A DNA stretch of 64,000 nt from Fibrobacteria bacterium (lineage in GTDB: Bacteria > Fibrobacterota > Fibrobacteria > UBA11236), in NCBI GenBank assembly GCA_050486505.1, contig JBJHDK010000004.1, forward strand, positions 2,548 to 66,547, given 5' to 3'. The notes beneath the pieces were generated by a model, which was not told the DNA's origin, searched no databases, and worked only from the letters and a program-made list of their open reading frames with translations. Positions 1,315-56,004 of this stretch are shown one piece after another. Position numbers and translations under genes: made by a program. Each line of letters begins with the position of its first letter. Positions within the stretch are counted from its first letter, which is position 1.

Positions 1315-1349
1315 CGGCCGTAACGGCCGTACAAAAAGCGACCGTCGCT
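1315..1349 (-). terminator. Putative intrinsic terminator downstream of nuoN (end of the nuoJKLMN unit)
   Basis: Read on the minus strand: hairpin AGCGACGGTCGCT (1337-1349, overlapping the nuoN TAG stop) followed by a T-run (plus-strand A-run 1333-1337). A second hairpin CGGCCGT-A-ACGGCCG lies at 1315-1329. Confidence 0.4.
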
Positions 1350-2796
1350 ACGGCAACACGGGAAGACGCAGCATCACGCCCAGCGCCAAGGTCGCGACGG
1401 CGCAGAACGCCAGGACCGACACGGCTTCGGGATGCAGGGCGCGGGGCTCCGCCGAGGGGTGCGGGGCATCGGCAGGAGGGTTCACGAACCACATGGCCCG
1501 GACCATTCCGAAGTAGAAGAAGAACGAGATCAGGCTGAGCACCACCGAGACGAACAACACCGGAAGAAACCACGGCATCGGCTCGAAGCCGGGGGTGAAC
1601 GCCCCGGTGATCACCGCGAACTTGGCCGCGAACCCTGCCGTCAGGGGAACCCCCGCGAGCCCGAAAATCATCCAGGTCAGGAGCGCTGCCACCCACGGGT
1701 TGCGCCGTCCGAGGCCATCGAAGTCGCTGACGGAAGACAGGTCCGCGCCCTTCGTTCCCAGCGCCATGAACCCGGCAATCACGCCGAGCGTGGTCAGGGA
1801 GTACGCGACGAGGTAGAAGAGGAAGGCGCTCGCGGAATCGAGGAACAGCGCCAGCAGCACGAAGCCCCCGTTGCCGACGGAGGAGTAGGCGAGGATGCGC
1901 TTGGCATCCGTCTGCACGATGGTCTGGATGTTTCCGAAAAGTGCGGACGCCAGTGCGACGACCAGAACGACGGGCATCCAGACCTCGCTCAGGTACATGA
2001 ACGGGCCCCAGAGCAAGACGGCCACGGCGGCGAAGAGGGCCACCTTGGCCGGAACGGAGATGAAGGAGAGGGACGCGAGGTTGGTTCCCTGGTAAATATC
2101 CGAGATCCAGAAGTGGAACGGGGCCGCGGCGATCTTGAACATCAGCGCCGCCAGCACGAGCGCCAGCGCCATCTTGGCAAGGATCAACTCCGCGACCGCC
2201 CCCTCAAGCACGAAGCCGCCGATGGCATCGCGCATTCCGGCAAGGTGCAGTTCCCCGGTAACGCCGTACAGGAAGGCGATGCCCAGAAGCAGGAACACGC
2301 TGGCGAACGCGCCGAGGATCAAGTACTTCATCCCGGCTTCGTTGCCGCGCGTGTCACGGAAGTTGAAGCCTGCAAGAACATAGGAGGGAATCGAGACGAG
2401 CTCGAAGGCGATGAACAGGGTCGCGACATCGCCCGCCAAGGGAAGGTGGACGAGGCCGAATGCTTGCGCCAGGGCGACCATGCGGAAATCGATGGAACGC
2501 ACGCGAATTTTCTCGAGATACCCGTTCGCGAGGACAAGGGCGCCCAAGGCAAGGACGAGCGCGGAAACGGCCAGAACCTTGCCGACCACGGTCACCCGGA
2601 TGGCGCCGCCGAAGAACTCGTCACCCGGGTGCAGGTGCATGCCGGTGATCAGGGCCGTCAAGCCAACCGCCGCCAGTGAGATCCAGAGCGAAAGGCGGCG
2701 CGTGGCCGGGCTTCCCTCGGGACGCACGGACGCCAAGATCAGCAGCAGGCAGAATCCGGCGGCGAGTGGGAGTTGCGAATAGAGGTATGCGTTCAT
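1348..2796 (-). CDS. nuoN: NADH-quinone oxidoreductase subunit N
   Basis: 482-aa polytopic membrane protein. The sequence is typical of NuoN/ND2 antiporter-like subunits (…FHFWISDIYQGT…). It is the last gene of the nuoJKLMN block. Confidence 0.93.
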   Translation of the reverse strand: MNAYLYSQLPLAAGFCLLLILASVRPEGSPATRRLSLWISLAAVGLTALITGMHLHPGDEFFGGAIRVTVVGKVLAVSALVLALGALVLANGYLEKIRVRSIDFRMVALAQAFGLVHLPLAGDVATLFIAFELVSIPSYVLAGFNFRDTRGNEAGMKYLILGAFASVFLLLGIAFLYGVTGELHLAGMRDAIGGFVLEGAVAELILAKMALALVLAALMFKIAAAPFHFWISDIYQGTNLASLSFISVPAKVALFAAVAVLLWGPFMYLSEVWMPVVLVVALASALFGNIQTIVQTDAKRILAYSSVGNGGFVLLALFLDSASAFLFYLVAYSLTTLGVIAGFMALGTKGADLSSVSDFDGLGRRNPWVAALLTWMIFGLAGVPLTAGFAAKFAVITGAFTPGFEPMPWFLPVLFVSVVLSLISFFFYFGMVRAMWFVNPPADAPHPSAEPRALHPEAVSVLAFCAVATLALGVMLRLPVLP

Positions 2797-2820
2797 GGCG
2801 ATGCGTTCTTCCCGTGGCGG

Positions 2821-4347
2821 CTATCCGGGCCACCCCACGGAATGAATGAAGGACACGGCTTTCTCCACCGGCCCCAAAAGCAGCATGGGATAGATCCCGA
2901 GCACCACCCACAGGGCGGCCATACCGAGCGCGACCCCCGTCTCGGAACGATCGAGGTCGGGAGCGGCCTCCACCCCGGGCTGCCGGGTCCGTGCCTCTCC
3001 CAGAAACACCTGATGAAAGGCGCGCACCATGGCCGCGGCAGCGAGCACTGCGCCCAGTCCGGCGAAGAATGCAAACCACGGGGAGGCATTGAAGGCGGCG
3101 AAGAAAATCAGCACCTCGCCGGGGAAGTTGTTCAACCCGGGAAGGCTGGCCGAGGCGAAGGCCGCCAGCAACAGGAATGCGAACAGACGGCCTTGCGATG
3201 CGCGCAAGCCGGCCAGCAACCCGCGGTCGGGACTGGCGCCGTCGCGCAAGATGCGCGCGTCGAGCGCGAAGAGGAGCACCATGATCAGGGCGTGATTGAA
3301 TGCGAGCAGAATGGCGCCGGAGAGACCCGAGGTCGCGGCGTCACCCGCCGACACCGACACGAACACACCGAGCGCGATCAGCGAAAGATGGGACAGCGAT
3401 CCGTAGGCAAGCAGGTCGATGAAACGGTTCTGCGACAGCATCAGCACGCCCCCATAAACCGCGCCCGCCACGGCGAGGATTTGCAGGGGGGTCGCGAACC
3501 GCGTCAGCTCTTCCGTGAAGGCGGGGGCGAGGATGAGGATGAGGCCGAAGGCGCCCATTTTCGACATCGCCGCGGAGAGCAGGGCTCGGCATGCCGCTGG
3601 AGCGACGTTGTAGGTGTCGCGCAACCAGCCGTGGAAGCCGAAGAGCGGCAGCTTGACCGCGAAGCCGAGAAAGAAGCCGAGAAACACCCAGGCGCGTGTC
3701 GTGTCGCCAAGGCGCGAGACGGTGGCGGCAAGCCCCTGCAGTCCGGGATCGCGGAAACTCTCGACGCACACCGCGCCGATGGCGAAGAGCATGGGAAGGC
3801 TTCCCGCGAGCGTGAACAGGACGAAGCGCAACAACACGGGGTAGACGGCGTTGCCGCGCACGTCGGGGCGGCCGTGCAGGCCGATCCAGAAGTAAACGGC
3901 CAGCAGGGAGGTTTCCCAGAAGACGAAGAACAGGAGCAGGGAGTCGACGAGGAAGACCCCCGCGAGGCTGAACGCCAGCGTCCACGCGGCGGCGTAGTAG
4001 GACTTCCCGTAACGGCTCTCACGGTCGCGCAGGAAAGTGAACACGACGGGCAGGCAGAGCCCGAGCAGCAGCAGGAACGGGGCCGTGCGCCCGTCAAGGA
4101 ACAGGCGGGGCTGGAATTCGAATCCCGACGTGCCGAGCTGGAACGCCGCGCCGCCTGATACCAGCGGGGCCGAAGCCGACAACGCCGCGCTCCCGGCCAG
4201 CACGGCGAGACCGGCGTAGACCCACGCGAACGCCAGCGACATGCGGGCGAACTTTTCCGGGCGCGCGCCCGCTGGCTGGAAGGCGAAGAGCAACGCAGCC
4301 AGCAGCGGCGTGAACAGGGCGGTCGACAACAGCATCGCGGATGTCAT
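2821..4347 (-). CDS. nuoM: NADH-quinone oxidoreductase subunit M
   Basis: 508-aa antiporter-like subunit (…GFHGWLRDTY…, NuoM/ND4 family), immediately upstream of nuoN. Confidence 0.93.
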   Translation of the reverse strand: MTSAMLLSTALFTPLLAALLFAFQPAGARPEKFARMSLAFAWVYAGLAVLAGSAALSASAPLVSGGAAFQLGTSGFEFQPRLFLDGRTAPFLLLLGLCLPVVFTFLRDRESRYGKSYYAAAWTLAFSLAGVFLVDSLLLFFVFWETSLLAVYFWIGLHGRPDVRGNAVYPVLLRFVLFTLAGSLPMLFAIGAVCVESFRDPGLQGLAATVSRLGDTTRAWVFLGFFLGFAVKLPLFGFHGWLRDTYNVAPAACRALLSAAMSKMGAFGLILILAPAFTEELTRFATPLQILAVAGAVYGGVLMLSQNRFIDLLAYGSLSHLSLIALGVFVSVSAGDAATSGLSGAILLAFNHALIMVLLFALDARILRDGASPDRGLLAGLRASQGRLFAFLLLAAFASASLPGLNNFPGEVLIFFAAFNASPWFAFFAGLGAVLAAAAMVRAFHQVFLGEARTRQPGVEAAPDLDRSETGVALGMAALWVVLGIYPMLLLGPVEKAVSFIHSVGWPG

Positions 4348-6251
4348 TCCATCCCCCAGAGGATGACCCAGGCCGTGAAGGCGAGGAAGAGGAGGCCGAG
4401 CGCGGCGTAGTGGTGCGCGCGACCGCTTTGCAGGCGGCGCACCCAGACGGACAGCAACGTGCCGAAGCGGCCCGTGACCGTCAAGATGCCGGTGAATACG
4501 CTCTCGAACCCGATCCGGAAAAGAAGGGACAGGCGCTGCAGCGGACGCGTCAGCGCGTATTCATACAGCTCGTCGAAGTAGAAGGTGTGGGTGAGCGGCC
4601 CCTTGTTTCCCAGGCGAAGGTGAGACAAGGCCGACAGCACGCGCTCACGTCGCGCAGGCACCGAGAAGACCATGAAGCAGGCGACGGCCAGCGAAATGTT
4701 CACCGCCAGCACCGGCAGCACGTGACCCCAATGCATCGCTTCATGAACAGCCGCGCCCGCCGAAACCCAGGCGGTCAGCAGGGCCGTCGAGCTGAAGAGC
4801 GCGAAGCCCACCGCCGCAACGGAGAGCACGAGCAACACGAAGCGAATGGCCGGGCTGCTCTCGTGGGGAACCTCATGCCCGGCATGCTGGGCATCGGCAG
4901 GCGCGGACAGATATCCGAGCAGGCGGAAGAAGTACAGCGCGGCGAGCGACTCGACAGCGAGCACGATCCAGTACACCACCGCTCCCGAGATCTCCCAGCC
5001 GAAACCCGCGAGCGTCGCGCCGCGGATCGATTCGAGCACGGCTTCCTTGGTGAAGAAGGCGGCGGAGAAATACGGAATGAAGCCGGCACCGCCGATGCAA
5101 CCGATCCACAGGGCCGCGCGCGTCACGGGCATGGTCTTGAGCACGCCGCCCAGCTTGCGGGCATCCTGCTCATGATGCGCGGAGAAGATGACGCTGCCGG
5201 CCCCGAGGAAGAGCAGTGCCTTGAAGAAGGCGTGGCCGAAGAGGTGCAGCAGCGCGGCGTGGGTCGAACCGGCGGCCAGCGCCAGGAACATCATGCCCAG
5301 GTTCGCGACGGTCGAATAGGCGAGGATTTTCTTGATGTCGTACTGGCTCACCGCCATGAACGCACCCACCACCAAGGTCACCAGCGCGCACAGGCCGATG
5401 ATCATGCGAACCTCGGGGAAGGCGGCATACAGCCAATCGAGCTGCATGATCAGGTACACACCCGCCGTGACCATGGTGGCGGCGTGGATGAGCGCGCTCA
5501 CCGGCGTGGGACCGGCCATCGCGTCGGCGAGCCACACGTGGAACGGAGCCTGCGCCGACTTGGCGAAGGCGCCGCCCAGCACGAGCAAGGCTCCCAGCCC
5601 GGCCAGACCTTCGCGTCCCTCGAGCAGCGCGGGACCGTTCTCCGAAAGCGAGGAGAGGGACACCGTGCCGAACGCCGCATAGAGCGTGAACACGCCCAGA
5701 AGGAAGAACAGATCGCCGACGCGATTCACAAAGAAGGCGCGGTAGGCTGCCAGCGGCACGTTCTTCTCGCGCCAGTAATGGCCGACCAGCAGGTACGAGC
5801 ACAGGCCCACGCCTTCCCAGCCGAGGAAGATGAGCACGAGGTTGTCGGCCAGCACGAGCACCAGCATCGCCGACACGAAGAGGTTCAGGCTCGCGAAGAA
5901 ACGGGACTGTTCGACGTCGGGCCGCATGTACCCCACCGAGTACCCCGTGATCAAGGTGCCGAAGAAGGTCACCATCAGGGTCATCGTCAGGCCGGGCGAA
6001 TCGAGGCGCAAGTCCATGCCGGCACGGAAGCCTTCGGTCGCCAGCCATGCGCCCAGATCGAGCGCCACCGCATCGGGGGATCCGAGCACGCCCGACGACA
6101 AGAATCCGAGGGCGACCAGGAACGAAAGGCCAACCGAAGCCGTGGCGAGCACCCCGACCGCGTTGTAGGAAAGACGGCCGCCCCATAGGGCGATCACCAG
6201 CGACGACAGGGCCGGCAATCCGGGAAGCGCAAGCAGCAGCACCGGGTTCAT
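4344..6251 (-). CDS. nuoL: NADH-quinone oxidoreductase subunit L
   Basis: 635-aa protein with NuoL/ND5 motifs (HAATMVTAGVYL, ILAYSTV…). It overlaps nuoM by 4 nt. Confidence 0.93.
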   Translation of the reverse strand: MNPVLLLALPGLPALSSLVIALWGGRLSYNAVGVLATASVGLSFLVALGFLSSGVLGSPDAVALDLGAWLATEGFRAGMDLRLDSPGLTMTLMVTFFGTLITGYSVGYMRPDVEQSRFFASLNLFVSAMLVLVLADNLVLIFLGWEGVGLCSYLLVGHYWREKNVPLAAYRAFFVNRVGDLFFLLGVFTLYAAFGTVSLSSLSENGPALLEGREGLAGLGALLVLGGAFAKSAQAPFHVWLADAMAGPTPVSALIHAATMVTAGVYLIMQLDWLYAAFPEVRMIIGLCALVTLVVGAFMAVSQYDIKKILAYSTVANLGMMFLALAAGSTHAALLHLFGHAFFKALLFLGAGSVIFSAHHEQDARKLGGVLKTMPVTRAALWIGCIGGAGFIPYFSAAFFTKEAVLESIRGATLAGFGWEISGAVVYWIVLAVESLAALYFFRLLGYLSAPADAQHAGHEVPHESSPAIRFVLLVLSVAAVGFALFSSTALLTAWVSAGAAVHEAMHWGHVLPVLAVNISLAVACFMVFSVPARRERVLSALSHLRLGNKGPLTHTFYFDELYEYALTRPLQRLSLLFRIGFESVFTGILTVTGRFGTLLSVWVRRLQSGRAHHYAALGLLFLAFTAWVILWGME

Positions 6252-6580
6252 GCCGATTCTCCGTACGCTTCGCCCAGGCGCGCGATGCGCTCACGGGTGA
6301 TGTCGCGATAATTGCGGAACAGCACGATGATCATCGCCAGGCCGACCGCGGCCTCGACGGCGGCCACGCCGATGGACAGCATGTAGAGATAGTGTCCCGT
6401 CTCCGTGCCGCCCCACAGGAAATAGTTGAAGGAAATGAACACCAGGTTCACCCCGTTCAGCATGATCTCGACGGAGAGCAGCACGAGGATGAGGCTGCGA
6501 CGGCGCAGCACCCCGAAGGCACCGATCAGAACCAGCAGCAGCGCCACCGTCAGGCAATTCTCGAGCGTGAACAGGGTCAT
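6248..6580 (-). CDS. nuoK: NADH-quinone oxidoreductase subunit K
   Basis: 110-aa hydrophobic protein of three helices, NuoK/ND4L-like. It overlaps nuoL by 4 nt. Confidence 0.93.
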   Translation of the reverse strand: MTLFTLENCLTVALLLVLIGAFGVLRRRSLILVLLSVEIMLNGVNLVFISFNYFLWGGTETGHYLYMLSIGVAAVEAAVGLAMIIVLFRNYRDITRERIARLGEAYGESA

Positions 6581-7179
6581 GCTCCCTCCTCACGGTCACG
6601 GTCGCCGGACACCGCACCCTTCGCGGGAACATGCGCGCGACGGCGCGCGAAATTCACGGACGCGACCACCCCCACGAGGATGAGGATGCTGATCAACTCG
6701 AAGGAAATGGTCAGGGGGTTGTTCAACGGATCCACGAACAGATACTGGGCGATCGAGTGGATGCCTCCGAAGCCTTCCTTGGTCACCGGCTGCGTCTCAA
6801 GGCGCGAGGCGGCGTAGTACACCGGCGGAATCAACACCAGCCCGACCCCGGCGAGCAGGAGCAACCAGGTCACCGTCCCCTTGCGGGAGGGGCCCTCGAA
6901 GCCGGCCCCCTCGGGCACCTCGCCCTCGTGCGGGGCGGGGTTGATCATCATGATCACGAAGGTGAACAGCATGAGGATCGCGCCGGCGTAGACCAGGATT
7001 TGCAGGATGCCCGCGAACGAGGCCTGCAACATGATGTAGATGAGGCTGACGGGCAAAAAGGACAGAATGAGGAGCAAGGTCGCCCGCACCGGGTTTTTCG
7101 CGAAAACAACGCTGAGGGAGAAGCCGAGCACCGCCACCACGGCAACGGCGAACAGGGTATCGATCAGGATTGGCGGCAC
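6577..7179 (-). CDS. nuoJ: NADH-quinone oxidoreductase subunit J
   Basis: 200-aa membrane protein, NuoJ/ND6-like. It overlaps nuoK by 4 nt and is the first gene of the downstream nuo block. Confidence 0.88.
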   Translation of the reverse strand: MPPILIDTLFAVAVVAVLGFSLSVVFAKNPVRATLLLILSFLPVSLIYIMLQASFAGILQILVYAGAILMLFTFVIMMINPAPHEGEVPEGAGFEGPSRKGTVTWLLLLAGVGLVLIPPVYYAASRLETQPVTKEGFGGIHSIAQYLFVDPLNNPLTISFELISILILVGVVASVNFARRRAHVPAKGAVSGDRDREEGA

Positions 7180-7264
7180 TGATTTCCCGGCGTTGAAACG
7201 GGCCCTCGAAAGCGGGTTCCGACGGCGATTTTTGCCCGAATTGACGGGCGGTATGTAGCAAAAA

Positions 7265-7304
7265 GGGGGGGGGAAATAAAGGAAGGATTCGGGGGGATCC
7301 CCCG
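7265..7304. promoter_or_regulatory. Unusual leader upstream of nuoJ: G9 homopolymer, AT-rich patch and GGGGGATCCCCC palindrome
   Basis: Between trmL (minus strand, ends 7325) and the nuoJ start (7179), read on the plus strand as aaaaGGGGGGGGGaaataaaggaaggattcGGGGGGATCCCCCgg. Confidence 0.35.
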
Positions 7305-7324
7305 GAAGCCGCTCTTTGTCGGGG

Positions 7325-7786
7325 TCAGGAGCGCGGTCGCATCGCCTCGTACGCGGCCACGGCGACCGCGTTCGACAGGTTCAGGGACCGCCCTTCGGGA
7401 TTCCGCTTCGGAATCGTCACAAGCCGGTCGGCGTAACGGCGGTGCATTTCCCGCGGAAGCCCCGCGGTCTCGCGCCCGAAGACGAGGTACACCGGATCCG
7501 GGTACTCCGCCTCCCAAAAGGATCGCTCCGTATGCGCGGTGAAGAACCACCCCGAGGCCGCAATGCCAGGATGCTTCGCCGCGAAGCCATCCCAATCAGG
7601 GTGGATCTCGACCTGGGCCGCGAAACGGTCCCAATAGTCGATCCCTGCCCTGCGCAGGGAGGCGTCATCCAGCGAGAACCCCAACGGTTCGATCAAGTGA
7701 AGCCGCAGGTTGTTGAGAAAGCACAGCCGGATGATGTTGCCGGTGTTCGCCGGAATCTCGGGCTGGTAGAGGACGATGTGAATCAC
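7325..7786 (-). CDS. trmL: tRNA (cytidine/uridine-2'-O)-methyltransferase, SpoU/TrmL family
   Basis: 153-aa protein with MIHIVLYQPEIPANTGNIIRLC…LHLIEP…SLNLS, diagnostic of SpoU-TrmL. Confidence 0.85.
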   Translation of the reverse strand: MIHIVLYQPEIPANTGNIIRLCFLNNLRLHLIEPLGFSLDDASLRRAGIDYWDRFAAQVEIHPDWDGFAAKHPGIAASGWFFTAHTERSFWEAEYPDPVYLVFGRETAGLPREMHRRYADRLVTIPKRNPEGRSLNLSNAVAVAAYEAMRPRS

Positions 7787-8202
7787 CCCCGCAACATCCG
7801 CCCCAACGACAGGTTGCCGCCGCCGCCGATCAAAAGGGCCGTGAAGCCGATGGCGAAAAGTGCGCCCATTTCGCTGCGCCCGAAGAAGTCCGCGCCCGTG
7901 GCGACGAAGACCACCACGGCCATCGTGAAGAGGATGGGAATCGATGCCAGGCGCGTGAAGATGCCGAGCACGACAAGCGCCGCGCAGAAGACTTCGGCAA
8001 ATACGACGAGCGCGAGGCTGAGGGGAGAGCCGAGGCCGAAGGGGTCATGGAACGTGGCGGCCCGCTCGGAGAAGCTCATCAGTTTAGGGACCCCGTGCCC
8101 GAAGAGCATGAAGAAGCCCATGCCGATGCGGAGAACGAAGAGGCCCCAGCCTGCGGAGCCGGACGCGGAGGAGTCGGAGGCGAGGGTGCGGAGGAGTTTC
8201 AT
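7783..8202 (-). CDS. DoxX family membrane protein
   Basis: 139-aa protein with four predicted TM helices and a DoxX-like pattern (GLFVLRIGMGFFMLFGHGVPKL…). It overlaps trmL by 4 nt. Confidence 0.7.
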   Translation of the reverse strand: MKLLRTLASDSSASGSAGWGLFVLRIGMGFFMLFGHGVPKLMSFSERAATFHDPFGLGSPLSLALVVFAEVFCAALVVLGIFTRLASIPILFTMAVVVFVATGADFFGRSEMGALFAIGFTALLIGGGGNLSLGRMLRG

Positions 8203-8214
8203 AATGCGGTGAAT

Positions 8215-8646
8215 CTACACACTCGAAACCACCCGAAACCCTTCGCGCATCGCTGCGACGGAAAGACGTTTGTCCAGGCAGATGAAATCGAATGCCGCCG
8301 GGTACCCTTCGCAAGCAACAAGCGCGGCGGCAAGTTGAAACGCGTCTCCCGCACGAAGCTCATGCACCCTTAGCAGGCGTTGTGCCTTGATGCGCACTTC
8401 CTCGGTCGCGCCGACTTCTGCCCAATGATTGGCGATACCGTCGAGAATTTCCAGGGCCACGACACTCTGATCGATCCGCAGTTTCTGCTCCAGCCTCTCG
8501 AGCCTCGAAATCGCGGAGACGCATTCAACCTTCGTGCCCCACCAAACCGTCATCAGCGGGTCGGATTTAACGACCTCCTCAACTGCAGTGGACGCAGGTT
8601 GGTCCACAAGCAGCGGAACGATGGCGGAGCTGTCCCAGAATTTCAT
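8215..8646 (-). CDS. vapC: Type II toxin, PIN-domain ribonuclease (VapC family)
   Basis: 143-aa protein. The N-terminus MKFWDSSAIVPLLVDQ is a typical PIN start with the first acidic residue. It is translationally coupled (4-nt overlap) to the upstream antitoxin ORF. Confidence 0.72.
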   Translation of the reverse strand: MKFWDSSAIVPLLVDQPASTAVEEVVKSDPLMTVWWGTKVECVSAISRLERLEQKLRIDQSVVALEILDGIANHWAEVGATEEVRIKAQRLLRVHELRAGDAFQLAAALVACEGYPAAFDFICLDKRLSVAAMREGFRVVSSV

Positions 8647-8954
8647 CGGGATTCCTCACGCTCATCGAGAAGCGCCCTCAGGATATCGCCACCGGGAAGT
8701 GGTTTGGCCCGCGGCATCTTCATCCAGCCCAAGTCCAGCGGCTTGTCCGCCACCCGGATCACACCCGCCTTCTCGAGACGATAAAGCCGTCCCTCATCGT
8801 CGGGGCTCATTCCGGGCCGGGCGGGACGCGCGGCGGATTCAAGGCGGGCGACGGGCACGCCGCGATCGGTAATGATGACGGTTTCCCCGTTTTTCGCCAA
8901 TTCGATGTAATGGCTCAGCCGGTTCTTTGTGTCGGAGATTGTAGCCTGAATCAT
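8643..8954 (-). CDS. Type II antitoxin, Phd/YefM family
   Basis: Internal ATG at 8954 gives a 103-aa protein MIQATISDTKNRLSHYIELAKNGETVIITDRGVPVARLE…, matching the Phd/YefM fold signature. The longer 147-aa ORF N-terminus looks non-coding. It sits immediately upstream of, and overlaps, vapC. Confidence 0.68.
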   Translation of the reverse strand: MIQATISDTKNRLSHYIELAKNGETVIITDRGVPVARLESAARPARPGMSPDDEGRLYRLEKAGVIRVADKPLDLGWMKMPRAKPLPGGDILRALLDEREESR

Positions 8955-9679: not shown

Positions 9680-10742
9680 ACCAGCCTCCGAACTCCATTG
9701 CCAGCGCGACGAAGAGAATGTTGACCAAGGCGATGGGGATGAGCTTCGTCCAGCCGAGCTTCATCAACTGATCCCAACGGAAGCGCGGAAGCGTCCAGCG
9801 CACCCACATGAAGAAGAAGACCATGGCCACGACCTTCGCGAGGAAGATGCCGAAGCTCGCGATGCCCGCGACATACCAAGGGAAGGCCTCGAGCCAGCCG
9901 AGCCACGCTTCGGGAAGCGTCCACCCGCCGAGGAAGAGCGTGACCATCACCGCGCACATGGCCCACAACGCGGCATACTCGCCCAGCATGAACCACGCGT
10001 AGCGCATGCCGGTGTATTCGGTGAAGTAGCCGCCCACGATCTCCTGCTCGGCTTCAGGCAGATCGAAGGGCGCGCGGTTGGTTTCGGCGAAGGCCGCGAT
10101 GAGAAAGAGGATGAAGGTCAGGGGGTTCAGGAACAGGTTCCACGCGGGGAGGACGCTGCCCTGTTGTTGCTGCACGATCTCCGCGAGATTGAGCGTGCCT
10201 GTGGTCATGATCAGCGCGATCACCGAAAGCAACATCACGATCTCGTAGCTGATCAGCTGCGCCGAGGAACGGATGCCGCCGAGAAGACTGTACTGGTTGT
10301 TCGATGCCCAGCCTCCGAACGCAAGGCCGTAGGAAGCGACGGAGGAAATCGCCATCACCACGAGCAAGCCCATCTGCACGTAACTCACCGCCAGCACGCC
10401 GTCGGGTCCGAGGAAGCCCGCGCCCGGGGCCTGCCCCACGGGAATGAGCGCGAAGGCGATCACGCCGGGCAGAAAGGTCATCAGCGGCGCGGCGAGGAAG
10501 AGCACGCGGTCGGTGTTGCGCGGGAAGAAGTCTTCCTTCCACATCAGCTTGAGCGCGTCGGCGGCGGCCTGCAGCAGGCCGAAGGGGCCCACGCGATTCG
10601 GGCCGAGGCGACGCTGGATCCGCGCCGAGATCTTGCGCTCCATCCACACCAGCATGGGCACGGCGCTCAGGACGATGCCGATGGCGACCAGCATCTTGAT
10701 CACCGCGATGGCGAGGGGGTGTTGCAGGGTGGCGGCGATCAT
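9669..10742 (-). CDS. nuoH: NADH-quinone oxidoreductase subunit H
   Basis: 357-aa polytopic NuoH/ND1 protein (…GWASNNQYSLLGGIRSSAQLISYEI…). Confidence 0.93.
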   Translation of the reverse strand: MIAATLQHPLAIAVIKMLVAIGIVLSAVPMLVWMERKISARIQRRLGPNRVGPFGLLQAAADALKLMWKEDFFPRNTDRVLFLAAPLMTFLPGVIAFALIPVGQAPGAGFLGPDGVLAVSYVQMGLLVVMAISSVASYGLAFGGWASNNQYSLLGGIRSSAQLISYEIVMLLSVIALIMTTGTLNLAEIVQQQQGSVLPAWNLFLNPLTFILFLIAAFAETNRAPFDLPEAEQEIVGGYFTEYTGMRYAWFMLGEYAALWAMCAVMVTLFLGGWTLPEAWLGWLEAFPWYVAGIASFGIFLAKVVAMVFFFMWVRWTLPRFRWDQLMKLGWTKLIPIALVNILFVALAMEFGGWYVR

Positions 10743-12214
10743 GCCGGAGTTCCCTGTTGGGGCGAATAATTATTCGCCCTTACATCACCCCGCAACGCCG
10801 CCACGATCTCCGTTTCGGGCATCCCGAAGGTCACCGGTTCCATGACGGGTTCGAAGGTCTGGGCGACGCCGGTGCGGTTGACGAAGGTTCCGGCCTTCTC
10901 GAACGTGGTCAACGTGGGCAGAGCCACGGCCACATTCCCGTAGCGCAGCAGCTCGCCCGATGCGAAGTCGAGAAGCACCACGTTTTCGCTGCGGTCGAGC
11001 ACGGACTTGAGTTCCGGCGTGAGCACGAAGCCGGGGATGTTGTGCACCAGCAACAAGGTGCCGATGCGTCCGGTCTCGGCGGCCAGCGCTCGCAGGGACG
11101 CGGCGGGATCGTCGATGCCCAAGATTTGTTTCAGGCCCGCGGTGTTGGGGTTCTTGTCGCCGCTGATGGTGAAACCGGGGAAGACCTGGTCGGCGACGAC
11201 GGGGTTGCCGTACCCGAAGAGACGGGCATGGGGGGCTGCTTCGGAAAGCACTTCCTTCAGGGACGTCATGGCCTCGTTGGTGTTCCACGCGGAGATCAAC
11301 GCCACCGTGTCGGGGGCCGCGAGCAGGTCGAGCGCGGCACGGCGCGCTTCGCGCCAGGTCGCGTCGCGGCCCTGCACCTTGGGTTTGCCCAGCCGGTCGA
11401 CATGCGCGTAGCCGAAGGAGAGACGGCCGCTGTCGCACATCCATTCCTTGTTGACCGCGTCGTTGCGGCGGGGAACGATGCGCTTGATACGGTCCTTCGC
11501 ATCCATGTCGACGCGCGTGTTGCAACCGACCGAGCAGTCGGCGCACACGGAAGGGTTCGAGTGCAGGTTCCACACGCGCGACTGGAACAGAAAGTCCGAG
11601 GAGACGAGCGCGCCCACGGGACAGATGTCCACGGTGTTCATCGACAGGGGATTGTCGAGGACCCGGCCCGGGAAGGTCGCGATCTCGCTGCGGTCGCCGC
11701 GATAGATGACGCCCAGTTCTCCGGTCCCCGAAACCTCGTCGGTGAAGCGCACGCAGCGGGTGCACACGATGCAGCGGGAACCCCAATACTTGACATGCGG
11801 GCCCATGGTGGCTTTCGACTTGCGCACCTTCTCTTCGCGGAAGCGCCCGTGGTCGCGGCCGTGCTCCACGCTGTAATCCTGCAGCTTGCACTCGCCCGAC
11901 TGATCGCATTCGGGGCAGTCGAGCGGATGGTTGATGAGAAGGAACTCCATCACGCCCTTGCGCGCCTCCACGGCATCGGGAGCCATGGTGGAAACCTCCA
12001 TGCCCTCGGCGACGGGGGTGGCGCAACCCACCACCGGGCGCGGCATGCCCTTCACGTTGACCATGCAGATGCGGCAGTTGCCGGCGATGCTCAAATCGGG
12101 GTGGTAGCAGTAGTGGGGAATGTCGACGTCGTTGGCGTGCGCCGCGCGGATCACGGTCCAGTCCGCGGGAACGGTGACGTCCTTGCCGTCGATTTTGAGG
12201 GAGACTTGTTTCAT
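10739..12214 (-). CDS. nuoG: NADH-quinone oxidoreductase subunit G (short form, about 490 aa)
   Basis: N-terminal 2Fe-2S ferredoxin motifs and 4Fe-4S motifs (CYHPDLSIAGNCRICMV…, HPLDCPECDQSGEC). The ORF extends to 12259, but the start is probably ATG 12214 (MKQVSLKIDG…), which leaves the inverted-repeat element intergenic. Confidence 0.85.
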   Translation of the reverse strand: MKQVSLKIDGKDVTVPADWTVIRAAHANDVDIPHYCYHPDLSIAGNCRICMVNVKGMPRPVVGCATPVAEGMEVSTMAPDAVEARKGVMEFLLINHPLDCPECDQSGECKLQDYSVEHGRDHGRFREEKVRKSKATMGPHVKYWGSRCIVCTRCVRFTDEVSGTGELGVIYRGDRSEIATFPGRVLDNPLSMNTVDICPVGALVSSDFLFQSRVWNLHSNPSVCADCSVGCNTRVDMDAKDRIKRIVPRRNDAVNKEWMCDSGRLSFGYAHVDRLGKPKVQGRDATWREARRAALDLLAAPDTVALISAWNTNEAMTSLKEVLSEAAPHARLFGYGNPVVADQVFPGFTISGDKNPNTAGLKQILGIDDPAASLRALAAETGRIGTLLLVHNIPGFVLTPELKSVLDRSENVVLLDFASGELLRYGNVAVALPTLTTFEKAGTFVNRTGVAQTFEPVMEPVTFGMPETEIVAALRGDVRANNYSPQQGTPA

Positions 12215-12235
12215 CTCGGTGTAGACCCATTCGGA

Positions 12236-12340
12236 CATTGGACAGTGGACAATGGACAATGGACAATGGAAGTCCGTATCGCGAACCCGCCGTAGCCCGC
12301 AACGGGTTGCCCTCTATTCCCCATTGTCCACTGCCCACTG
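12236..12340. repeat. Long inverted repeat with (TGGACAA)x3 tandem heptads between nuoF and nuoG
   Basis: Left arm tggacagtggacaatggacaatggacaatgg. Right arm ccattgtccactgcccactgtcca, which is the near-perfect reverse complement. The arms are separated by about 45 nt that carry their own small palindrome. Confidence 0.6.
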
Positions 12341-12347
12341 TCCATTC

Positions 12348-13736
12348 TCATTTCCTCTCCCCCATTCCCACGCCCATCACGCTGGGGGCGCCGTTGCGGG
12401 CGGCGTCGCGCTTGGCGGCGGGGGTGATCTCGTCACGGGCGGTGCGTTCCCGCATCTTGCTCGCGCCGAGCGAAGTCGAGGCGTCGAACTCGCCGCGGAA
12501 ATGCTGCAGGTAGCTTTGCATGGGCATGGCGGCGGCATCGGCAAGCACGCAGATGGTGCGGCCGCGCATGTTCTTGGCCACCTCGCCGAGCAGGTCGGCG
12601 TCACCGGCGCGCGCATGGTTCTCGTGGAAGCGGTGCGCCAGTTTCTCGAGCCAGCCGGTGCCCTCGCGGCACGGGGTGCATTGGCCGCACGACTCGTGGT
12701 GGTAGAAGCGCATGGTGTTGTACGCCGCCGACATCAGGTCGACGCCGTCGTGCAGCACCGTGATCCCCCCGGATCCCAGCATGGAACCCAAAGACGCGAG
12801 GCTTTCGTAGTCGAGCGTGCATTGCTCCACCATGTCGGGCGTGAGCAGCGGCGCGGAGAGCCCCCCGGGGATGACGGCCTTCAGGGAGCGCCCCTCGACA
12901 AGGCCTCCGCCGTACTGGTCGATGAAGTCGCGCATGCGAATGCCGAGCGGAACCTCGTACACCCCCGGCTTGCGCACCGCGCCCGAGAGGCAGAAGATCT
13001 TGAAGCCCGGGCTCTTTTCCGTGCCCCACTGGCGGTGCCAGGCGGCGCCGTGCTCGAGGATATGCTTCACCGTGGCGATGGTCTCGACGTTGTTGACGAT
13101 GGTCGGGCAACCGAAAAGCCCCGAAACGGCGGGGAAGGGCGGCTTGATCTTGGGATACCCGCGCCCGCCCTCGATCGAGGAGAGCATGCCGGTCTCTTCG
13201 CCGCAGATGTAGGCGCCCGCGCCGCGCACCACGGTGACGGTGAGGTCGAAGTTCGTGCCGAAGATGCCCTTGCCGAGAATTCCCTTCGCCTTCGCCTCGC
13301 GCACCGCGGCTTCGAGCCGTTGGTATCCGAGGACGAACTCGCCGCGCAGGTAGACGAAGGCCTGGTGGCTCTGGATGGCCCAGCAGGTGAGCAGGATGCC
13401 CTCGAGCAACTGGTGCGGATCCTTCTCGATGATGTGGCGGTCCTTGAAGGTCCCCGGCTCGCTCTCGTCGCCGTTGACGGCGAGGTAGGCGGGCTTGCCC
13501 GTACCCTTGGCGAGGAAGCCCCACTTCATTCCCGTGGGAAAGCCCGCGCCGCCGCGGCCGCGCAGGCCCGACTCCTTGACGATGGCGACAAGCGATTCCG
13601 GATCTGCTTGGCCCACCAGTTTGCGGGCGGTCTCGTAGCCGCCGCGCGCCGTGTAATGCTCTAGGGTGTGGGAACCTTCCTCGTGGACATGCTTGAGGAG
13701 GATCGGGGAAAACGGAGTCGCGGAAGTGGCGGTCAT
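12348..13736 (-). CDS. nuoF: NADH-quinone oxidoreductase subunit F (FMN/NADH-binding, 4Fe-4S)
   Basis: Start at ATG 13736 (MTATSATPF…), which overlaps the nuoE stop as ATGA. Classic NuoF motifs are present (GRGGAGFPTG, ESEPGTFKDR, CGQCTPCREG). The 649-aa ORF in the track is an upstream read-through artefact. Confidence 0.93.
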   Translation of the reverse strand: MTATSATPFSPILLKHVHEEGSHTLEHYTARGGYETARKLVGQADPESLVAIVKESGLRGRGGAGFPTGMKWGFLAKGTGKPAYLAVNGDESEPGTFKDRHIIEKDPHQLLEGILLTCWAIQSHQAFVYLRGEFVLGYQRLEAAVREAKAKGILGKGIFGTNFDLTVTVVRGAGAYICGEETGMLSSIEGGRGYPKIKPPFPAVSGLFGCPTIVNNVETIATVKHILEHGAAWHRQWGTEKSPGFKIFCLSGAVRKPGVYEVPLGIRMRDFIDQYGGGLVEGRSLKAVIPGGLSAPLLTPDMVEQCTLDYESLASLGSMLGSGGITVLHDGVDLMSAAYNTMRFYHHESCGQCTPCREGTGWLEKLAHRFHENHARAGDADLLGEVAKNMRGRTICVLADAAAMPMQSYLQHFRGEFDASTSLGASKMRERTARDEITPAAKRDAARNGAPSVMGVGMGERK

Positions 13737-14464
13737 GCGTTCCCCCGTTCGACGGGATCGGAGACCGGCGCAGTCAGGGGCGTCTTCAACGGCGGTGGAA
13801 CGACCGTCGTGCGCGGCGCGGTTCCCGGAGCCAGATAGGGATCTTTGTCGTCGAAGCGGCGTGCGCCGGTTTGCGTTTCGCCCTCGAAGTTGTAGTGGTT
13901 CGGCAGCACCGACACGCGCAGGTCCATGGCGAGGCCCGGCTTGCCCTGATAGTCGGCGACAGATTTGCCCTCGGCCTTGAGAAGCGAGTCGATGTAGTTG
14001 TCGAGCACGACACCCTTCATGGAGCAGAAGTGCTCGGAGTCCTTTTGCACCACGGGCGGCTTGTCGCAGTCGGCAAGGCACTCGACCTTCTCGCAGGAGA
14101 ACAGGCCGTCCGCGGTGCGCTCGCCGGGGCCGATGCCGATCCGCGCGCGGATCTGCCGCAGGGCCTGCGCGGTGTTGCCGTCGAGCGCGCACATCAGCGT
14201 GGCGCACACCATGAAACGGTGCTTGCCGTGCGCGGGGCGCTTGAAGTGGGTGTAGAAGGTGACCATGCCCTGCACGTGGGCGACGCTGACACCGCACAGT
14301 TCCGCGGCGATGAGCATGCCGTCGTCGTCGATGCAGCCGAACTCCTCCTCGACGAGGCGGAGCACCATCATGAGCATGGAGCGCTTGTTGGGGTACTCGT
14401 CGACCCAGTCGTGGAATTGCTTCATCCCCTCGGGGGAGAGGGTTTTCTTCGTGTCGGCACTCAT
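13733..14464 (-). CDS. nuoE: NADH-quinone oxidoreductase subunit E (24 kDa, 2Fe-2S) with Pro-rich C-terminal extension
   Basis: NuoE/thioredoxin-like core (…CATLMCALDG…EKVECLADC…) followed by a Pro/Thr-rich tail of about 70 aa. 243 aa. Confidence 0.88.
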   Translation of the reverse strand: MSADTKKTLSPEGMKQFHDWVDEYPNKRSMLMMVLRLVEEEFGCIDDDGMLIAAELCGVSVAHVQGMVTFYTHFKRPAHGKHRFMVCATLMCALDGNTAQALRQIRARIGIGPGERTADGLFSCEKVECLADCDKPPVVQKDSEHFCSMKGVVLDNYIDSLLKAEGKSVADYQGKPGLAMDLRVSVLPNHYNFEGETQTGARRFDDKDPYLAPGTAPRTTVVPPPLKTPLTAPVSDPVERGNA

Positions 14465-15675
14465 CAGCGATCCAGCTCCCCGGCGATGATGTTGAGCGAA
14501 CCCAGGATCGCCACCACGTCGGCCAGCATCGCCCCCTCCATCAACTTCCCGAAGATCGGGTAGTTGATGAACGAAGGCGGACGCACGCGCACGCGCCAGG
14601 GGTTCGAGCTCCCGTCGGAGACAAGGTGGAAGCCCAGCTCCCCGTTGGGGGACTCCGTGGCGGAATACAGGTCGGTGACCGGAGGATTCAGCCCGTGCTC
14701 CTCGCCCGGCATGATCATCTTGAAATGGTGGATCATCGATTCCATGTCGGTGTAGGTCGACAGCTTGTCGGGCAGGGCGTGCTTCTGGTCGAGCGCAGAG
14801 ATGGGGCCCGGCTCCAGCATCTTCAGCGCCTGGCGCACGATGCGGATGCTCTGGTCCATCTCGTCGAGACGAACCTTGTAGCGCGCCAGGCAGTCGCCCT
14901 CGGTGTACACCGGCACGTCGAAGTCGAGCTCGTTGTAGATCAGGTAGGGGCGATACTTGCGCAGGTCGTATTCCACGCCCGCCGCGCGCGCCAAGGGGCC
15001 GGTGATGCCATAGCTGTCGGCCTCTTCCGCCGTGATGATCCCGATGCCCGCCGTGCGGTCGATGAAGATACGGTTCTTGTAGAAGCTCTCACGCAGCATC
15101 CCGACAGTCTTCTCCATGCTGTCGAGGATCGTCAGCACGCGCTTCTCGAAGTCGGCGGGCAGGTCGAAGGCCACTCCTCCCACGCGGGTGTAACTCGTGG
15201 TGAGGCGCGTGCCCGTCACCGCCTCGAACACGTCGTAGAGCTTCTCGCGCTCGACGAAGGTCCACAACAGCGAGGAAAAGGCGCCGAGGTCCATGGCGAG
15301 CGCGCCCACGCACAGGGAGTGGTCGGCCATGCGCGACAGCTCACACAGGATGGTGCGGATGACCTGGCAGCGCCGCGGCGTCTCGAGCCCGATCAACTCC
15401 TCGACGGCAAGGGCAAAGCCGATATTGTTGTTGAGCGGCGAGAAATAATTGAGCCGGTCGCTCAGCGTGATGAACTGGTTGTAGGTGCGGTATTCGCCCA
15501 GCTTTTCGAAGCCGGTGTGCAGGAACCCGATTTCCTGCTCGGCACGCAGCACGCGCTCGCCGCGCACCTCCATCATCACGCGCAAGGTGCCGTGCATCGC
15601 GGGATGCGAAGGCCCCACGTTCATGCGGACGACGTTGTCGTCGCGCTCGGTGACTTCTTGCTCGTAGGAATACAT
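14464..15675 (-). CDS. nuoD: NADH-quinone oxidoreductase subunit D (49 kDa)
   Basis: Start at ATG 15675 (MYSYEQEVTERDDNVVRMNVGPSHPAMHGTLRV…). Canonical NuoD sequence. The longer ORF N-terminus is not used. Confidence 0.93.
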   Translation of the reverse strand: MYSYEQEVTERDDNVVRMNVGPSHPAMHGTLRVMMEVRGERVLRAEQEIGFLHTGFEKLGEYRTYNQFITLSDRLNYFSPLNNNIGFALAVEELIGLETPRRCQVIRTILCELSRMADHSLCVGALAMDLGAFSSLLWTFVEREKLYDVFEAVTGTRLTTSYTRVGGVAFDLPADFEKRVLTILDSMEKTVGMLRESFYKNRIFIDRTAGIGIITAEEADSYGITGPLARAAGVEYDLRKYRPYLIYNELDFDVPVYTEGDCLARYKVRLDEMDQSIRIVRQALKMLEPGPISALDQKHALPDKLSTYTDMESMIHHFKMIMPGEEHGLNPPVTDLYSATESPNGELGFHLVSDGSSNPWRVRVRPPSFINYPIFGKLMEGAMLADVVAILGSLNIIAGELDR

Positions 15676-15676
15676 G

Positions 15677-16234
15677 TCAGTCGCGCGCCTCCGCGGGTGC
15701 CCTGTGCGCCGGAATCGCATGGTACACCGGGAAGGCACCGCGCTCGCCCCGGCCGCGCAGGGGATAGTCCTTGCGCAGGGGATAACCTTCGTAGTCATCG
15801 GGCATGAGAATGCGCTTCAGGTCGGGATGCCCGGTGAACTCGATTCCGTAGAGGTCGAAGATCTCGCGCTCAGTCCAGTCGCAGCCGGCGAACAGGTCGA
15901 CATTCGAGTCGATGCGGGGCGCGTCCGCGGGCACGAAGGCGCGCACCTGGGCCTTTACTCCGAGTTTGGGGGACAGGAGGGTCGTCACGACCGCAAAGCG
16001 TTCGGGCATGGCCTTGGGGTATTTCAGGTAATCGGCGCCGCAGCAATCGACGAAGCGGGTGAACGCCAACTCGGGGTCTTCCTTGAGAAGGCGCACCAGA
16101 TCGCGGGCATCGGCACCACGCACGGAGAACTGCACGTACTGGGTCTTCTCTTCCTTGCCGAGAAGGCGGTCCCCGAAGGCGGCTTCCACCTTGCCCGCGA
16201 GAACGGAAAGATTCCCCTTGCGGTAGGTCAGCAT
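15677..16234 (-). CDS. nuoC: NADH-quinone oxidoreductase subunit C (30 kDa)
   Basis: 185-aa NuoC-like protein, separate from nuoD (not a fused CD subunit). Confidence 0.88.
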   Translation of the reverse strand: MLTYRKGNLSVLAGKVEAAFGDRLLGKEEKTQYVQFSVRGADARDLVRLLKEDPELAFTRFVDCCGADYLKYPKAMPERFAVVTTLLSPKLGVKAQVRAFVPADAPRIDSNVDLFAGCDWTEREIFDLYGIEFTGHPDLKRILMPDDYEGYPLRKDYPLRGRGERGAFPVYHAIPAHRAPAEARD

Positions 16235-16237
16235 GGA

Positions 16238-16825
16238 TCAGTGCCCCCCGTTTCCCTCTGTCCCGACGCGGGACGACGAGGACGCAAAGGCATCGGGCGA
16301 ACGATAGTTGGGCGACAGCGAGGGGTCGCGCGCGAGGTCGTCGCTGATGAACTCCGTGGACTTGGCCTTGCCCTGTTTCGCCTTTTCCTGCACGGCCATC
16401 AGGGCCTCGATGAAGGCCTCGGGGCGCGGGGGGCAGCCGGGCATGTAGGCGTCCACGGGGATGAACTGGTCGACGCCCTGGATCAGGGTGTAGGTGTCGA
16501 ACACCCCGCCGCTGCTGGCGCAGGCGCCCATCGAAATGCACCACTTGGGTTCGGGCATCTGTTCCCAGATGCGCTGCAGCACCGGCATCATCTTCAGGGA
16601 AATGCGTCCCGAAACGATCAGCAGGTCGGACTGGCGGGGCGTGAACTTGAGCACTTCGGATCCGAAGCGCGCGGCATCGTACTTCGAGCTGAACGTCGCC
16701 ATCATCTCGATGCCGCAGCACGCGGTGCCGAAGGGCATGGGCCACATCGAGTTGCCGCGCGCCCAGTTGATGGCGAAGCCCAGCCGCGTCGTGATGACGT
16801 CGTTGATGCGCTCGTTCAATCCCAT
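16238..16825 (-). CDS. nuoB: NADH-quinone oxidoreductase subunit B (20 kDa, 4Fe-4S N2)
   Basis: Start at ATG 16825 (MGLNERINDV…), overlapping the nuoA stop. Conserved NuoB motifs (GTACCGIEMM, CPPRPE). Confidence 0.93.
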   Translation of the reverse strand: MGLNERINDVITTRLGFAINWARGNSMWPMPFGTACCGIEMMATFSSKYDAARFGSEVLKFTPRQSDLLIVSGRISLKMMPVLQRIWEQMPEPKWCISMGACASSGGVFDTYTLIQGVDQFIPVDAYMPGCPPRPEAFIEALMAVQEKAKQGKAKSTEFISDDLARDPSLSPNYRSPDAFASSSSRVGTEGNGGH

Positions 16826-17178
16826 TCGAGGGCTCCCGTGCGAATGATGTAGAGCAGGCCGAGACCCAGCACGCCCATGAAGACCAGGACGGCGATCAAG
16901 GCGCCGCTGCCGAGCAGGTTCTGGTAATCCGCGGCGAAAGGCAGGAGGAAAATGGTCTCGATGTCGAAGAGGATGAAGAGCAGCGCGAAGACGTAGAACT
17001 TGATGGCGAAGGGGCGGTGCGGGTTCTGCATCTGGTCGACGCCGCACTCGTAGGGCTCGTATTTGACCTTGCTCCAGGTGCGGCGGGGCCCCAACAGGGA
17101 GGACAGGCCGAGACCCGCCACTCCGACAAGGAGGGCAAGCCCGATGAATGCCAGCAGCGGCAAATACTCGCTTAGCAC
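16816..17178 (-). CDS. nuoA: NADH-quinone oxidoreductase subunit A
   Basis: 120-aa NuoA/ND3 protein of three helices (…YECGVD…). It is the first gene of the nuoABCDEFGHI block, with a 350-nt non-coding region upstream. Confidence 0.9.
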   Translation of the reverse strand: MLSEYLPLLAFIGLALLVGVAGLGLSSLLGPRRTWSKVKYEPYECGVDQMQNPHRPFAIKFYVFALLFILFDIETIFLLPFAADYQNLLGSGALIAVLVFMGVLGLGLLYIIRTGALEWD

Positions 17179-56003: not shown

Positions 56004-56004
56004 G

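Follow-up and report, generated by a model that had tools for sequence, protein, structure and literature searches.

Two probable transcription units and a changeable, cargo-bearing spacer in the Complex I locus of a Fibrobacteria bacterium

The genes for respiratory Complex I of a Fibrobacteria bacterium lie in a stretch of 64,000 nucleotides (assembly GCA_050486505.1, contig JBJHDK010000004.1, positions 2,548 to 66,547; hereafter the window), where they are parted between nuoI and nuoJ. The blocks nuoA-I (9107-17178) and nuoJ-N (1348-7179), both on the minus strand, are separated by 1,927 nt (7180-9106) holding four unrelated genes: a phd/yefM-family antitoxin gene, vapC, doxX and trmL. We favour, at a probability of roughly 0.72, a model in which each block is a transcription unit of its own, both read in the same direction, and the spacer that parts them is changeable and took up its cargo in layers. 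The first unit, nuoA-I, would end at a GC-rich hairpin followed by a T-run, and the second, nuoJ-N, would start from its own promoter at a conserved motif. The DNA between terminator and promoter would then be an inter-operon spacer that tolerates cargo and has been filled differently by sub-lineages.

Pfam matches confirm 14 of 14 nuo genes. NuoA-N is complete, with the NADH-oxidising module NuoE/F/G included, and a first-pass annotation that had placed all of the genes on one strand is borne out. Its further statement, that a Phd/YefM antitoxin, VapC, DoxX and trmL sit between nuoI (9107) and nuoJ (7179), also stands. The locus is not a single uninterrupted operon, which is a trait of model nuo operons and not of the enzyme family.

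To place this gap among relatives, 80 loci were fetched with NuoI, the window's 18 proteins were searched by tblastn, and 25 related Fibrobacteria loci were compared; they are referred to here by locus numbers (L001 onwards). Genes in the gaps of relatives were called by a codon-usage score and representatives were identified with Pfam and NCBIfam, and L135-L139 were added through a TrmL protein search and contig look-ups. The closest relatives by NuoI are all metagenome-assembled Fibrobacterota of the class Fibrobacteria, with a best identity of 74% at full length that rises to 91% over the conserved C-terminal region. Orthologues of all nine nuoA-I genes occur in more than 20 Fibrobacteria loci, and nuoJ-N orthologues are likewise found in relatives.

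Across the 25 loci the junction measures as little as 15 nt and as much as about 9 kb, except where nuoJ is missing from the fetched downstream DNA. nuoI and nuoJ are 15-33 nt apart, with no spacer, in L026 and L007, and 256 nt apart with no gene between them in L005. The junction holds trmL only in L001, doxX-trmL in L006 and L136/L137, doxX followed by the contig end in L002, and doxX with a trmL fragment, again followed by the contig end, in L004. An opposite-strand response regulator occupies it in L020 and L022, joined in L022 by a histidine-kinase fragment. In L008, L009, L011, L016-L019 and L025 the spacer measures 6.6-9 kb and carries genes on both strands, including two DUF4423 genes and a CHB_HEX_C protein; L018, on which Pfam was run as the representative of this group, also holds a HATPase_c histidine-kinase-like protein. 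In L010, L012, L014, L015, L021 and L024, nuoJ is absent from the 1-10 kb of available downstream DNA. Where non-Fibrobacteria loci have the full cluster, as in Leptospirales-, Myxococcota- and Desulfomonile-type loci among others, a few hundred nucleotides at most part nuoI from nuoJ.

The first-pass annotation had read the gap as one recent 1.9-kb insertion and had suggested just such a comparison of synteny. The interruption is real, and nuoI and nuoJ are indeed adjacent in L007, L026 and the full-cluster outgroup loci. A single recent event does not fit, as junction content varies, the boundary is probably old, doxX-trmL is a clade-level feature and phd-vapC is the youngest part. Nor are the same four genes an ancient conserved arrangement, the outcome that the annotation had named as contrary to its view; content differs between relatives.

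The evidence for a second unit centers on a two-part motif upstream of nuoJ. Its consensus is CCTTTR-N16-TT(T/G)CTA(A/C)AT, with a length, first C to last T, of 29 nt in all loci but L020 and L022 (30 nt), and its distance to nuoJ is 40-140 nt. In a comparison of 230 nt upstream of nuoJ, the motif is present in the window and in 13 of 13 genome-collection relatives with a spacer and a visible nuoJ, and the alignment of these 14 loci has 12 invariant columns. A sequence-only covariance model made from this alignment, R1, also matches two loci on which it was not trained, L135 (E = 1.3e-5) and L136 (E = 3.5e-4), bringing the count to the window and 15 of 15 relatives with a spacer and a visible nuoJ (16 split loci). 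R1 matches nothing in L007 and L026, where the genes are fused, and nothing in six outgroup loci that were scanned. Two conserved boxes at a fixed spacing thus recur across orthologous loci (the 14 and the two independent ones), the pattern of a promoter. In the window the motif can be written CCTTTA-N19-TACATA, about 75 nt upstream of the nuoJ GTG, or parsed alternatively as a TTTATT-like -35 and a TAAATT/TACATA-like -10 that are 17 nt apart. We infer that it functions as the nuoJ-N promoter.

The argument for an independent nuoJ-N unit does not rest on the motif alone, because the spacers of clades B and C bar dependence on read-through. These spacers contain opposite-strand genes or 7-9 kb of unrelated DNA, and since opposite-strand genes bar read-through, nuoJ-N must be independently transcribed there. 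The earlier suggestion that the downstream half had its own promoter or attenuator divides in two. The promoter gains from a motif that is found in split loci and not in fused ones, and from the opposite-strand spacers of relatives, a comparative argument; the attenuator loses, as there is no Rfam match and no covariation and the fold has a z of only -0.55.

That 145-nt non-coding stretch ahead of nuoJ (7180-7324), with its G9 tract and palindrome, is present as first described. The G9 run (7265-7273; C9 on the coding strand) falls within the spacer of the motif. It is the only homopolymer of at least 9 in the 64 kb, where chance alone predicts about 1.2-1.5 such runs for each base type. The equivalent in L135 is interrupted (CCACCCCCC) at the same total length, and other relatives carry TTCCCGGGG, AATCGGCCCC and similar sequences in the motif spacer. 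As a special feature the run was rejected, being within chance expectation and not conserved. The palindrome, which is not conserved in L001 or L006, is at most a weak terminator. An attenuator or leader RNA ahead of nuoJ was likewise rejected, for want of an Rfam match and of conserved structure or covariation. An Rfam scan of 1-20000 at E <= 1 gave three chance-level matches, none in the gap; the leader consensus fold (RNAalifold, six sequences) came to -1.7 kcal/mol with 0 compensatory pairs; the single-sequence fold was no better than shuffles (z = -0.55); and a GCCCG/CGGGC hairpin in the window leader is not kept in register in relatives.

The upstream unit has a candidate end of its own. 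The hairpin after nuoI, GGGGGGTGGCC-GTGA-GGTCGCCC followed by TTTTCTTTT (stem 9081-9056), has the structure of an intrinsic terminator: a terminator scan gives 11 pairs, 6 of them G-C, with a 4-nt loop and a T-run, and the fold comes to -25.9 kcal/mol (z = -1.95). It would terminate transcription at this point. L005 and L135 have different sequences of the same kind, a GC-hairpin and a T-run, at the equivalent place, and L005 looks like a bare boundary, with a putative terminator and the motif and nothing between them. A candidate start for the first unit lies upstream of nuoA, where the window has TTTCCTAAATTT, a putative nuoA promoter element and a -10-type box akin to that of the nuoJ motif; boxes of the same type (TTTTCCTA[A/G]nTTT) are conserved ahead of nuoA in relatives.

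The alternative that fares best is a single 18-gene transcript from the nuoA promoter, with the cargo read through and no promoter at the nuoJ motif. We consider it unlikely. The 18 genes do share one strand and are tightly spaced, a strict sigma-70 scan finds no promoter, and L007 and L026, being fused, demonstrate that a single unit can work. Such a transcript would, however, have to cross the terminator-like hairpin after nuoI. It also leaves the motif unaccounted for, which stands at a fixed spacing ahead of nuoJ even where the spacer is of opposite strand or 7-9 kb long, and which is absent exactly where nuoI and nuoJ are fused.

A less probable alternative still is that the nuoJ element is not a plain promoter but an operator or an RNA leader or attenuator, coordinating expression of the membrane sectors in both Complex I and ATP synthase. 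The thought arises from the distribution of R1. In the roughly 850 kb searched, just two further matches are convincing, one each in the window and L132, both upstream of atp F0 genes. The site in the window (58137-58178, minus strand; CCTTTAAATCGAAGCGGCTTCTTTCTAACAT) is the only other full-length match in the 64 kb, and L132, the closest atp relative, has an equivalent at 2049-2088. Both nuoJ and atp leaders carry GCCCGT shortly after the -10-like box. Against this, two other Fibrobacteria atp loci, L133 and L134, carry an ordinary promoter at that place (TTGAAT/GTGAAT-N16-TATTAT/TATCGT); L134 is from the same genome as L005, whose nuoJ has the motif. There is, moreover, no conserved RNA structure or Rfam match, and a -35/-10-like layout with 17-nt spacing is typical of a promoter.

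The motif precedes nuoJ-N, which encodes the proton-pumping membrane arm of Complex I, in 16 split loci and F0 genes in the window and L132, and for this reason one could imagine a lineage-specific control element through which the membrane sectors of the respiratory chain are expressed independently of their soluble partners, an idea we hold to be unlikely. Of three atp relatives examined by contig, the motif is in one (L132) and not in two (L133 and L134), which speaks for a shared type of strong promoter rather than a control element. A metagenome scan with AtpB gave no motif match, but the loci it returned were of only 52% identity or less. It would be still more speculative to suppose that the C9 run makes nuoJ-N expression phase-variable in this strain.

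The atp site lies inside the ATP synthase F0 operon, between a PF09527 gene (58219-58602), here called atpZ, and an open reading frame (ORF) of 123 amino acids (57720-58091) that precedes atpB (56872-57723). The row parB-M23 peptidase-bactofilin-atpZ-small membrane-like protein of 114-123 amino acids-atpB-E-F-H-A is conserved in the window (about 56000-59650, minus strand), L132, L133 and L134; in the window the M23 peptidase, atpZ, atpB and atpF were confirmed.

In a neighbour-joining tree of NuoF, G, H and I (1,390 columns, 100 bootstraps), all loci in which doxX or trmL is seen next to nuoI fall in one clade with 100% support. Its members are the window, L001, L004, L006 and two loci whose contigs stop at nuoI, L003 and L023. 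The sister clade of L005, L007 and L026 (100% bootstrap) has no cargo. doxX occupies the same position in L002, L004, L006, L135 and L136/L137, and trmL orthologues stand directly upstream of nuoJ in L001, L006, L135 and L136/L137. The toxin-antitoxin (TA) pair is rarer: phd-vapC at the junction is seen only in the window and L135, and L136/L137 have nuoF-G-H-I-doxX-trmL-nuoJ-N without it.

L135, the closest relative, has the order [phd remnant]-vapC-doxX-trmL-nuoJ-K-L, and its identity to the window declines toward the nuoI side across 3 kb: NuoK 97%, NuoL 94%, NuoJ 88%, TrmL 84%, DoxX 66% and VapC 58%. Its VapC (in 1-1013) is intact at 145 amino acids with the acidic residues kept, and its Phd is reduced to the C-terminal 47 amino acids with no visible in-frame start. 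This suggests that the TA cassette of L135 is decaying or that its toxin is inactive.

The order of cargo events that we infer is as follows. The nuoI|nuoJ boundary and its promoter would have come first. doxX-trmL would then have been gained by the ancestor from which the window's clade descends, and L001 would have lost doxX afterwards. Last, in the shallow lineage that unites the window with L135, a horizontally acquired phd-vapC would have landed 12 nt upstream of doxX. Outside the clade, trmL lies far from nuo, at 5001-5471 in L138 (from the same metagenome-assembled genome (MAG) as L021) and at 5001-5486 in L139. Its neighbours there are an opposite-strand gene for a protein of 121-123 amino acids of unknown kind and Hpt, response-regulator-GGDEF and M23-peptidase genes, a context that is probably the ancestral location of trmL.

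The DNA between nuoI and the first cargo gene does not align between relatives. L006 (about 7440-7520) and L002 (about 2745-2830) carry a long imperfect inverted repeat, made up of CATCACAGCATCACAGC-type units, in the interval from nuoI to doxX; the window lacks it and has phd-vapC there instead. L004, the most basal member of the doxX/trmL clade, has a TrmL-like fragment of 24 amino acids after doxX (9305-9376, 88% identity), then an opposite-strand ORF with a weak PadR match (9407-9952), then the contig end, which may be a rearranged version of the spacer.

Composition sets the TA pair apart. The G+C content at third codon positions is 0.66 in vapC and 0.70 in phd, compared to 0.81-0.90 in the nuo genes (a range that leaves out nuoD), and because the pair falls below the nuo range we read it as foreign. 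The values for trmL (0.82) and doxX (0.87) are higher, that of doxX being like native genes. No notable direct or inverted repeats flank the cargo in 6900-9300, and Pfam finds no integrase or transposase among the four genes.

The antitoxin scores above the cutoffs of PF02604 and TIGR01552 and has the N-terminal DNA-binding domain of Phd/YefM proteins. Its gene is upstream of and co-directional with vapC, the phd stop and vapC start overlapping by 4 nt (ATGA). In the toxin, D5, E41 and D125 are invariant and D101 is at least 90% conserved across 22 homologues, 19 of which match PF01850 (PIN). The family counts 2,120 homologues in many phyla with a patchy distribution, several of them named VapC in source databases; a PDB sequence search with VapC and with its family profile gave no match. 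By these residues the window's toxin is a PIN domain with four acidic residues, its toxicity and its neutralisation being putative. The nearest homologue after the window's own (71% identity) is in L081 (3270-4069), on an unrelated contig, with a Phd antitoxin upstream. There the TA pair lies between rpsG and an EF-G-like gene, in the company of genes for a TPR protein and for two proteins that resemble outer-membrane beta-barrels, and L081 shows another conserved operon interrupted by the same TA family.

The vapC stop is 12 nt ahead of the doxX start, and the doxX stop and trmL start overlap by 4 nt (GTGA). Because of this tight packing (4-nt overlap, 12-nt gap, 4-nt overlap), the four cargo genes are probably a small operon in themselves. 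Its transcripts would start in the 152-nt region that follows the nuoI terminator, arise by read-through of that terminator, or both. A candidate promoter can be read in that region, TTGCGT-N17-TATTTT; the strict sigma-70 scan does not call it and it is not conserved in relatives, and as a cargo promoter it is weak and speculative. The methyltransferase is probably TrmL: its best NCBIfam match is TIGR00185 (158.9 bits, E = 8e-47), under the equivalog cutoff of 190.6, and JGI labels its homologues tRNA (cytidine/uridine-2'-O-)-methyltransferase.

Could part of the cargo serve the enzyme itself? DoxX, possibly with TrmL, might function with Complex I, for instance as a quinone-related accessory membrane protein co-expressed with the membrane arm, and so be more than neutral cargo, which we regard as very unlikely. 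Its gene stands on one strand at an unchanged place in the window and in five related loci, and the DoxX Pfam family is named after DoxD-like quinol-oxidase subunits. Yet doxX is absent from the junction in L001, inside the clade, and in all other clades. It also diverges faster than its neighbours (66% between the window and L135, against 88-97% for Nuo subunits) and is upstream of, not downstream of, the putative nuoJ promoter.

A chimeric metagenome contig that joins two half-operons is next to impossible: the source is evidently a MAG, as are all close relatives, and the window's proteins map to one 73-kb NCBI contig, but the 2,264 nt that run from vapC into nuoK recur at 100% identity in L140, an independent public Logan assembly of the same organism, and L135, L136/L137, L006 and L001 independently show cargo contiguous with nuoI, nuoJ or both. 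Sequencing run SRR31311414 also contains this organism.

Several observations weigh against two units with layered cargo and temper our confidence. The strict scan for E. coli sigma-70 promoters returns 0 sites in 6500-9800, neither TACATA nor CCTTTA is a good match to the E. coli hexamers, and no published promoter consensus for Fibrobacteres came out of a literature search. A regulator-binding site, overlapping a promoter or standing in its place, is another possible identity of the motif. The hairpin after nuoI has a z of only -1.95, and some read-through from nuoA to nuoN may occur; such terminators are often leaky. Finally, the deeper nodes of the tree, which decide between an ancestral and a recurrent split, have 56-73% support. 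One ancestral split, later undone in L007 and L026, is favoured over repeated splitting both by parsimony and by the motif being shared.

Beyond the junction itself, this locus shows how a large respiratory operon may come apart. A boundary of terminator and promoter at one junction would come first, and it would then act as a safe landing site for housekeeping, signalling and selfish TA genes, the enzyme being left unharmed. The phylum Fibrobacterota is little known, and hardly any of its aerobic members are in culture; the motif offers a candidate Fibrobacteria promoter that may be useful for annotation and the design of genetic tools. Knowledge of Complex I itself is unchanged.

The nuo cluster is broken at a second place in some relatives. 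Between nuoD and nuoE, L001 (3468-5093), L026 (3232-4854) and L004 (1542-3284) have an opposite-strand B12-binding radical-SAM/DUF4070 gene and L006 a short-chain dehydrogenase (937-1737), all on the minus strand; L026 holds an additional methyltransferase there, and a partial R1 match lies just upstream of nuoE in L004 (3451-3473). In the window nuoD and nuoE are adjacent. Because this junction too is broken in several relatives, the nuo cluster appears to be generally modular in the Fibrobacteria group. Other features of the locus concern single genes. NuoI has an N-terminal extension of about 45-55 amino acids for which relatives give a poor alignment or none (window 9107-9679). NuoG is a short form of about 491-506 amino acids (ORF 10739-12259) with the molybdopterin-oxidoreductase domain reduced to a trace. 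Immediately upstream of nuoA is an ORF of 396 amino acids (17314-18504, minus strand) with no Pfam match. Coordinates of the nuo genes, the cargo and the putative control elements are collected in Table 1.

Table 1. Features of the Complex I locus in the window. Starts of nuo genes are likely start codons, separately assessed; ~ marks approximate ends; aa, amino acids.
Feature	Position	Strand	Details
nuoN	1348-2796	-	PF00361 (PF00662 also among L/M/N)
nuoM	2821-4347	-	PF00361 (PF00662 also among L/M/N)
nuoL	4344-6251	-	PF00361 (PF00662 also among L/M/N)
nuoK	6248-6580	-	PF00420
nuoJ	6577-7179	-	PF00499; GTG start
Presumed nuoJ 5' leader	7180-7251	-	GCCCGTCAATTCGGGC at 7234-7249, conserved within clade A; CCGGGAA just before GTG
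Two-part promoter-like motif	7252-7282	-	CCTTTA at 7277-7282, spacer with C9, GCTACATA, -10-like TACATA at 7252-7257
Palindrome	7291-7303	-	GGGGGATCCCCCC; after trmL; weak hairpin, fold z = -0.3
SpoU-family TrmL-like tRNA 2'-O-methyltransferase gene	7325-7786	-	153 aa; PF00588 93.6 bits, full length
doxX, small membrane protein	7783-8202	-	139 aa; PF07681 46.4 bits (cutoff 23.6), residues 20-101
PIN-domain VapC-family toxin gene	8215-8646	-	143 aa; PF01850 20.8 bits, under the 23.6 cutoff
phd/yefM-family antitoxin gene	8643-8954	-	103 aa, ATG at 8954; PF02604 32.6 bits (cutoff 29.8), TIGR01552 32.1 (cutoff 20.8)
Candidate (weak, speculative) phd-vapC(-doxX-trmL) promoter	8961-8989	-	TTGCGT-N17-TATTTT, read from sequence; ends 6 nt before the phd ATG
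Terminator-like hairpin	9046-9081	-	26 nt after the nuoI stop; GGGGGGTGGCC-GTGA-GGTCGCCCTTTT, then CTTTT
nuoI	9107-9679	-	Fer4 pair
nuoH	9669-10742	-	PF00146
nuoG	10739-~12214	-	PF13510+PF10588+PF22117
nuoF	12348-13736	-	PF01512+PF10589
nuoE	13733-14464	-	PF01257
nuoD	14464-~15675	-	PF00346
nuoC	15677-16234	-	PF00329
nuoB	16238-~16825	-	PF01058
nuoA	16816-17178	-	PF00507
Candidate -10/-7 element of nuoA promoter	17310-17321	-	TTTCCTAAATTT; ~130 nt upstream of nuoA

Fibrobacteres and Bacteroidetes both belong to the Fibrobacteres-Chlorobi-Bacteroidetes (FCB) group, which makes the promoters of the latter a natural point of comparison. The Bacteroidetes promoter (sigma-ABfr) has TTTG at -33 and TAnnTTTG at -7 (PMC7366714). 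The nuoJ motif shares this layout, TTT(G/A)-N19-TAnnT with a T-rich stretch ahead of TAnnT, although the window's own -7 box, TACATACC, has only TAnnT in common with the consensus. The nuoA boxes TAAATTTC and TAGCTTTG fit TAnnTTTG well. For Fibrobacterota, a literature search turned up no promoter data from experiments.

Some phase-variable promoters carry a homopolymeric tract within their spacer, for example the poly-C of Bordetella fim. The window's C9 is like it in falling exactly between the -35-like and -10-like boxes. At nine bases, however, it is short, within chance expectation and interrupted in L135 at the same total length. It has the same length in the independent assembly L140, with no length variation seen.

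TA cassettes routinely land in intergenic spacers. The pair in the window resembles VapBC-type type II systems with a Phd/YefM antitoxin in its antitoxin-first order, its 4-nt overlap and the D-E-D-D quartet of its PIN domain. It differs from a typical VapBC pair in being lodged inside a respiratory gene cluster and in having a toxin that scores just under the Pfam PIN cutoff.

As for the nuo genes, E. coli nuoA-N and Thermus nqo1-14 have the same 14 subunits in the same order on one strand. In these model operons nuoI and nuoJ are adjacent, whereas in the window they are parted by a 1.9-kb interruption flanked by a terminator-like hairpin and a promoter-like motif. Split or interspersed nuo clusters are already known to be common. 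According to a 2025 survey, split and single-cluster arrangements occur side by side in most Complex I clades (PMC12361115); it makes 0 mentions of Fibrobacteres. Unidentified reading frames stand between genes of Paracoccus denitrificans nqo and Rhodobacter capsulatus nuo, probably also between nqo9 (nuoI) and nqo10 (nuoJ); a literature search on the Paracoccus frames and on internal nuo promoters gave no usable result. What sets the present case apart from other split clusters is that one and the same junction is involved across a Fibrobacteria radiation, with a conserved promoter-like motif downstream of it and a layered history of cargo that differs by sub-lineage.

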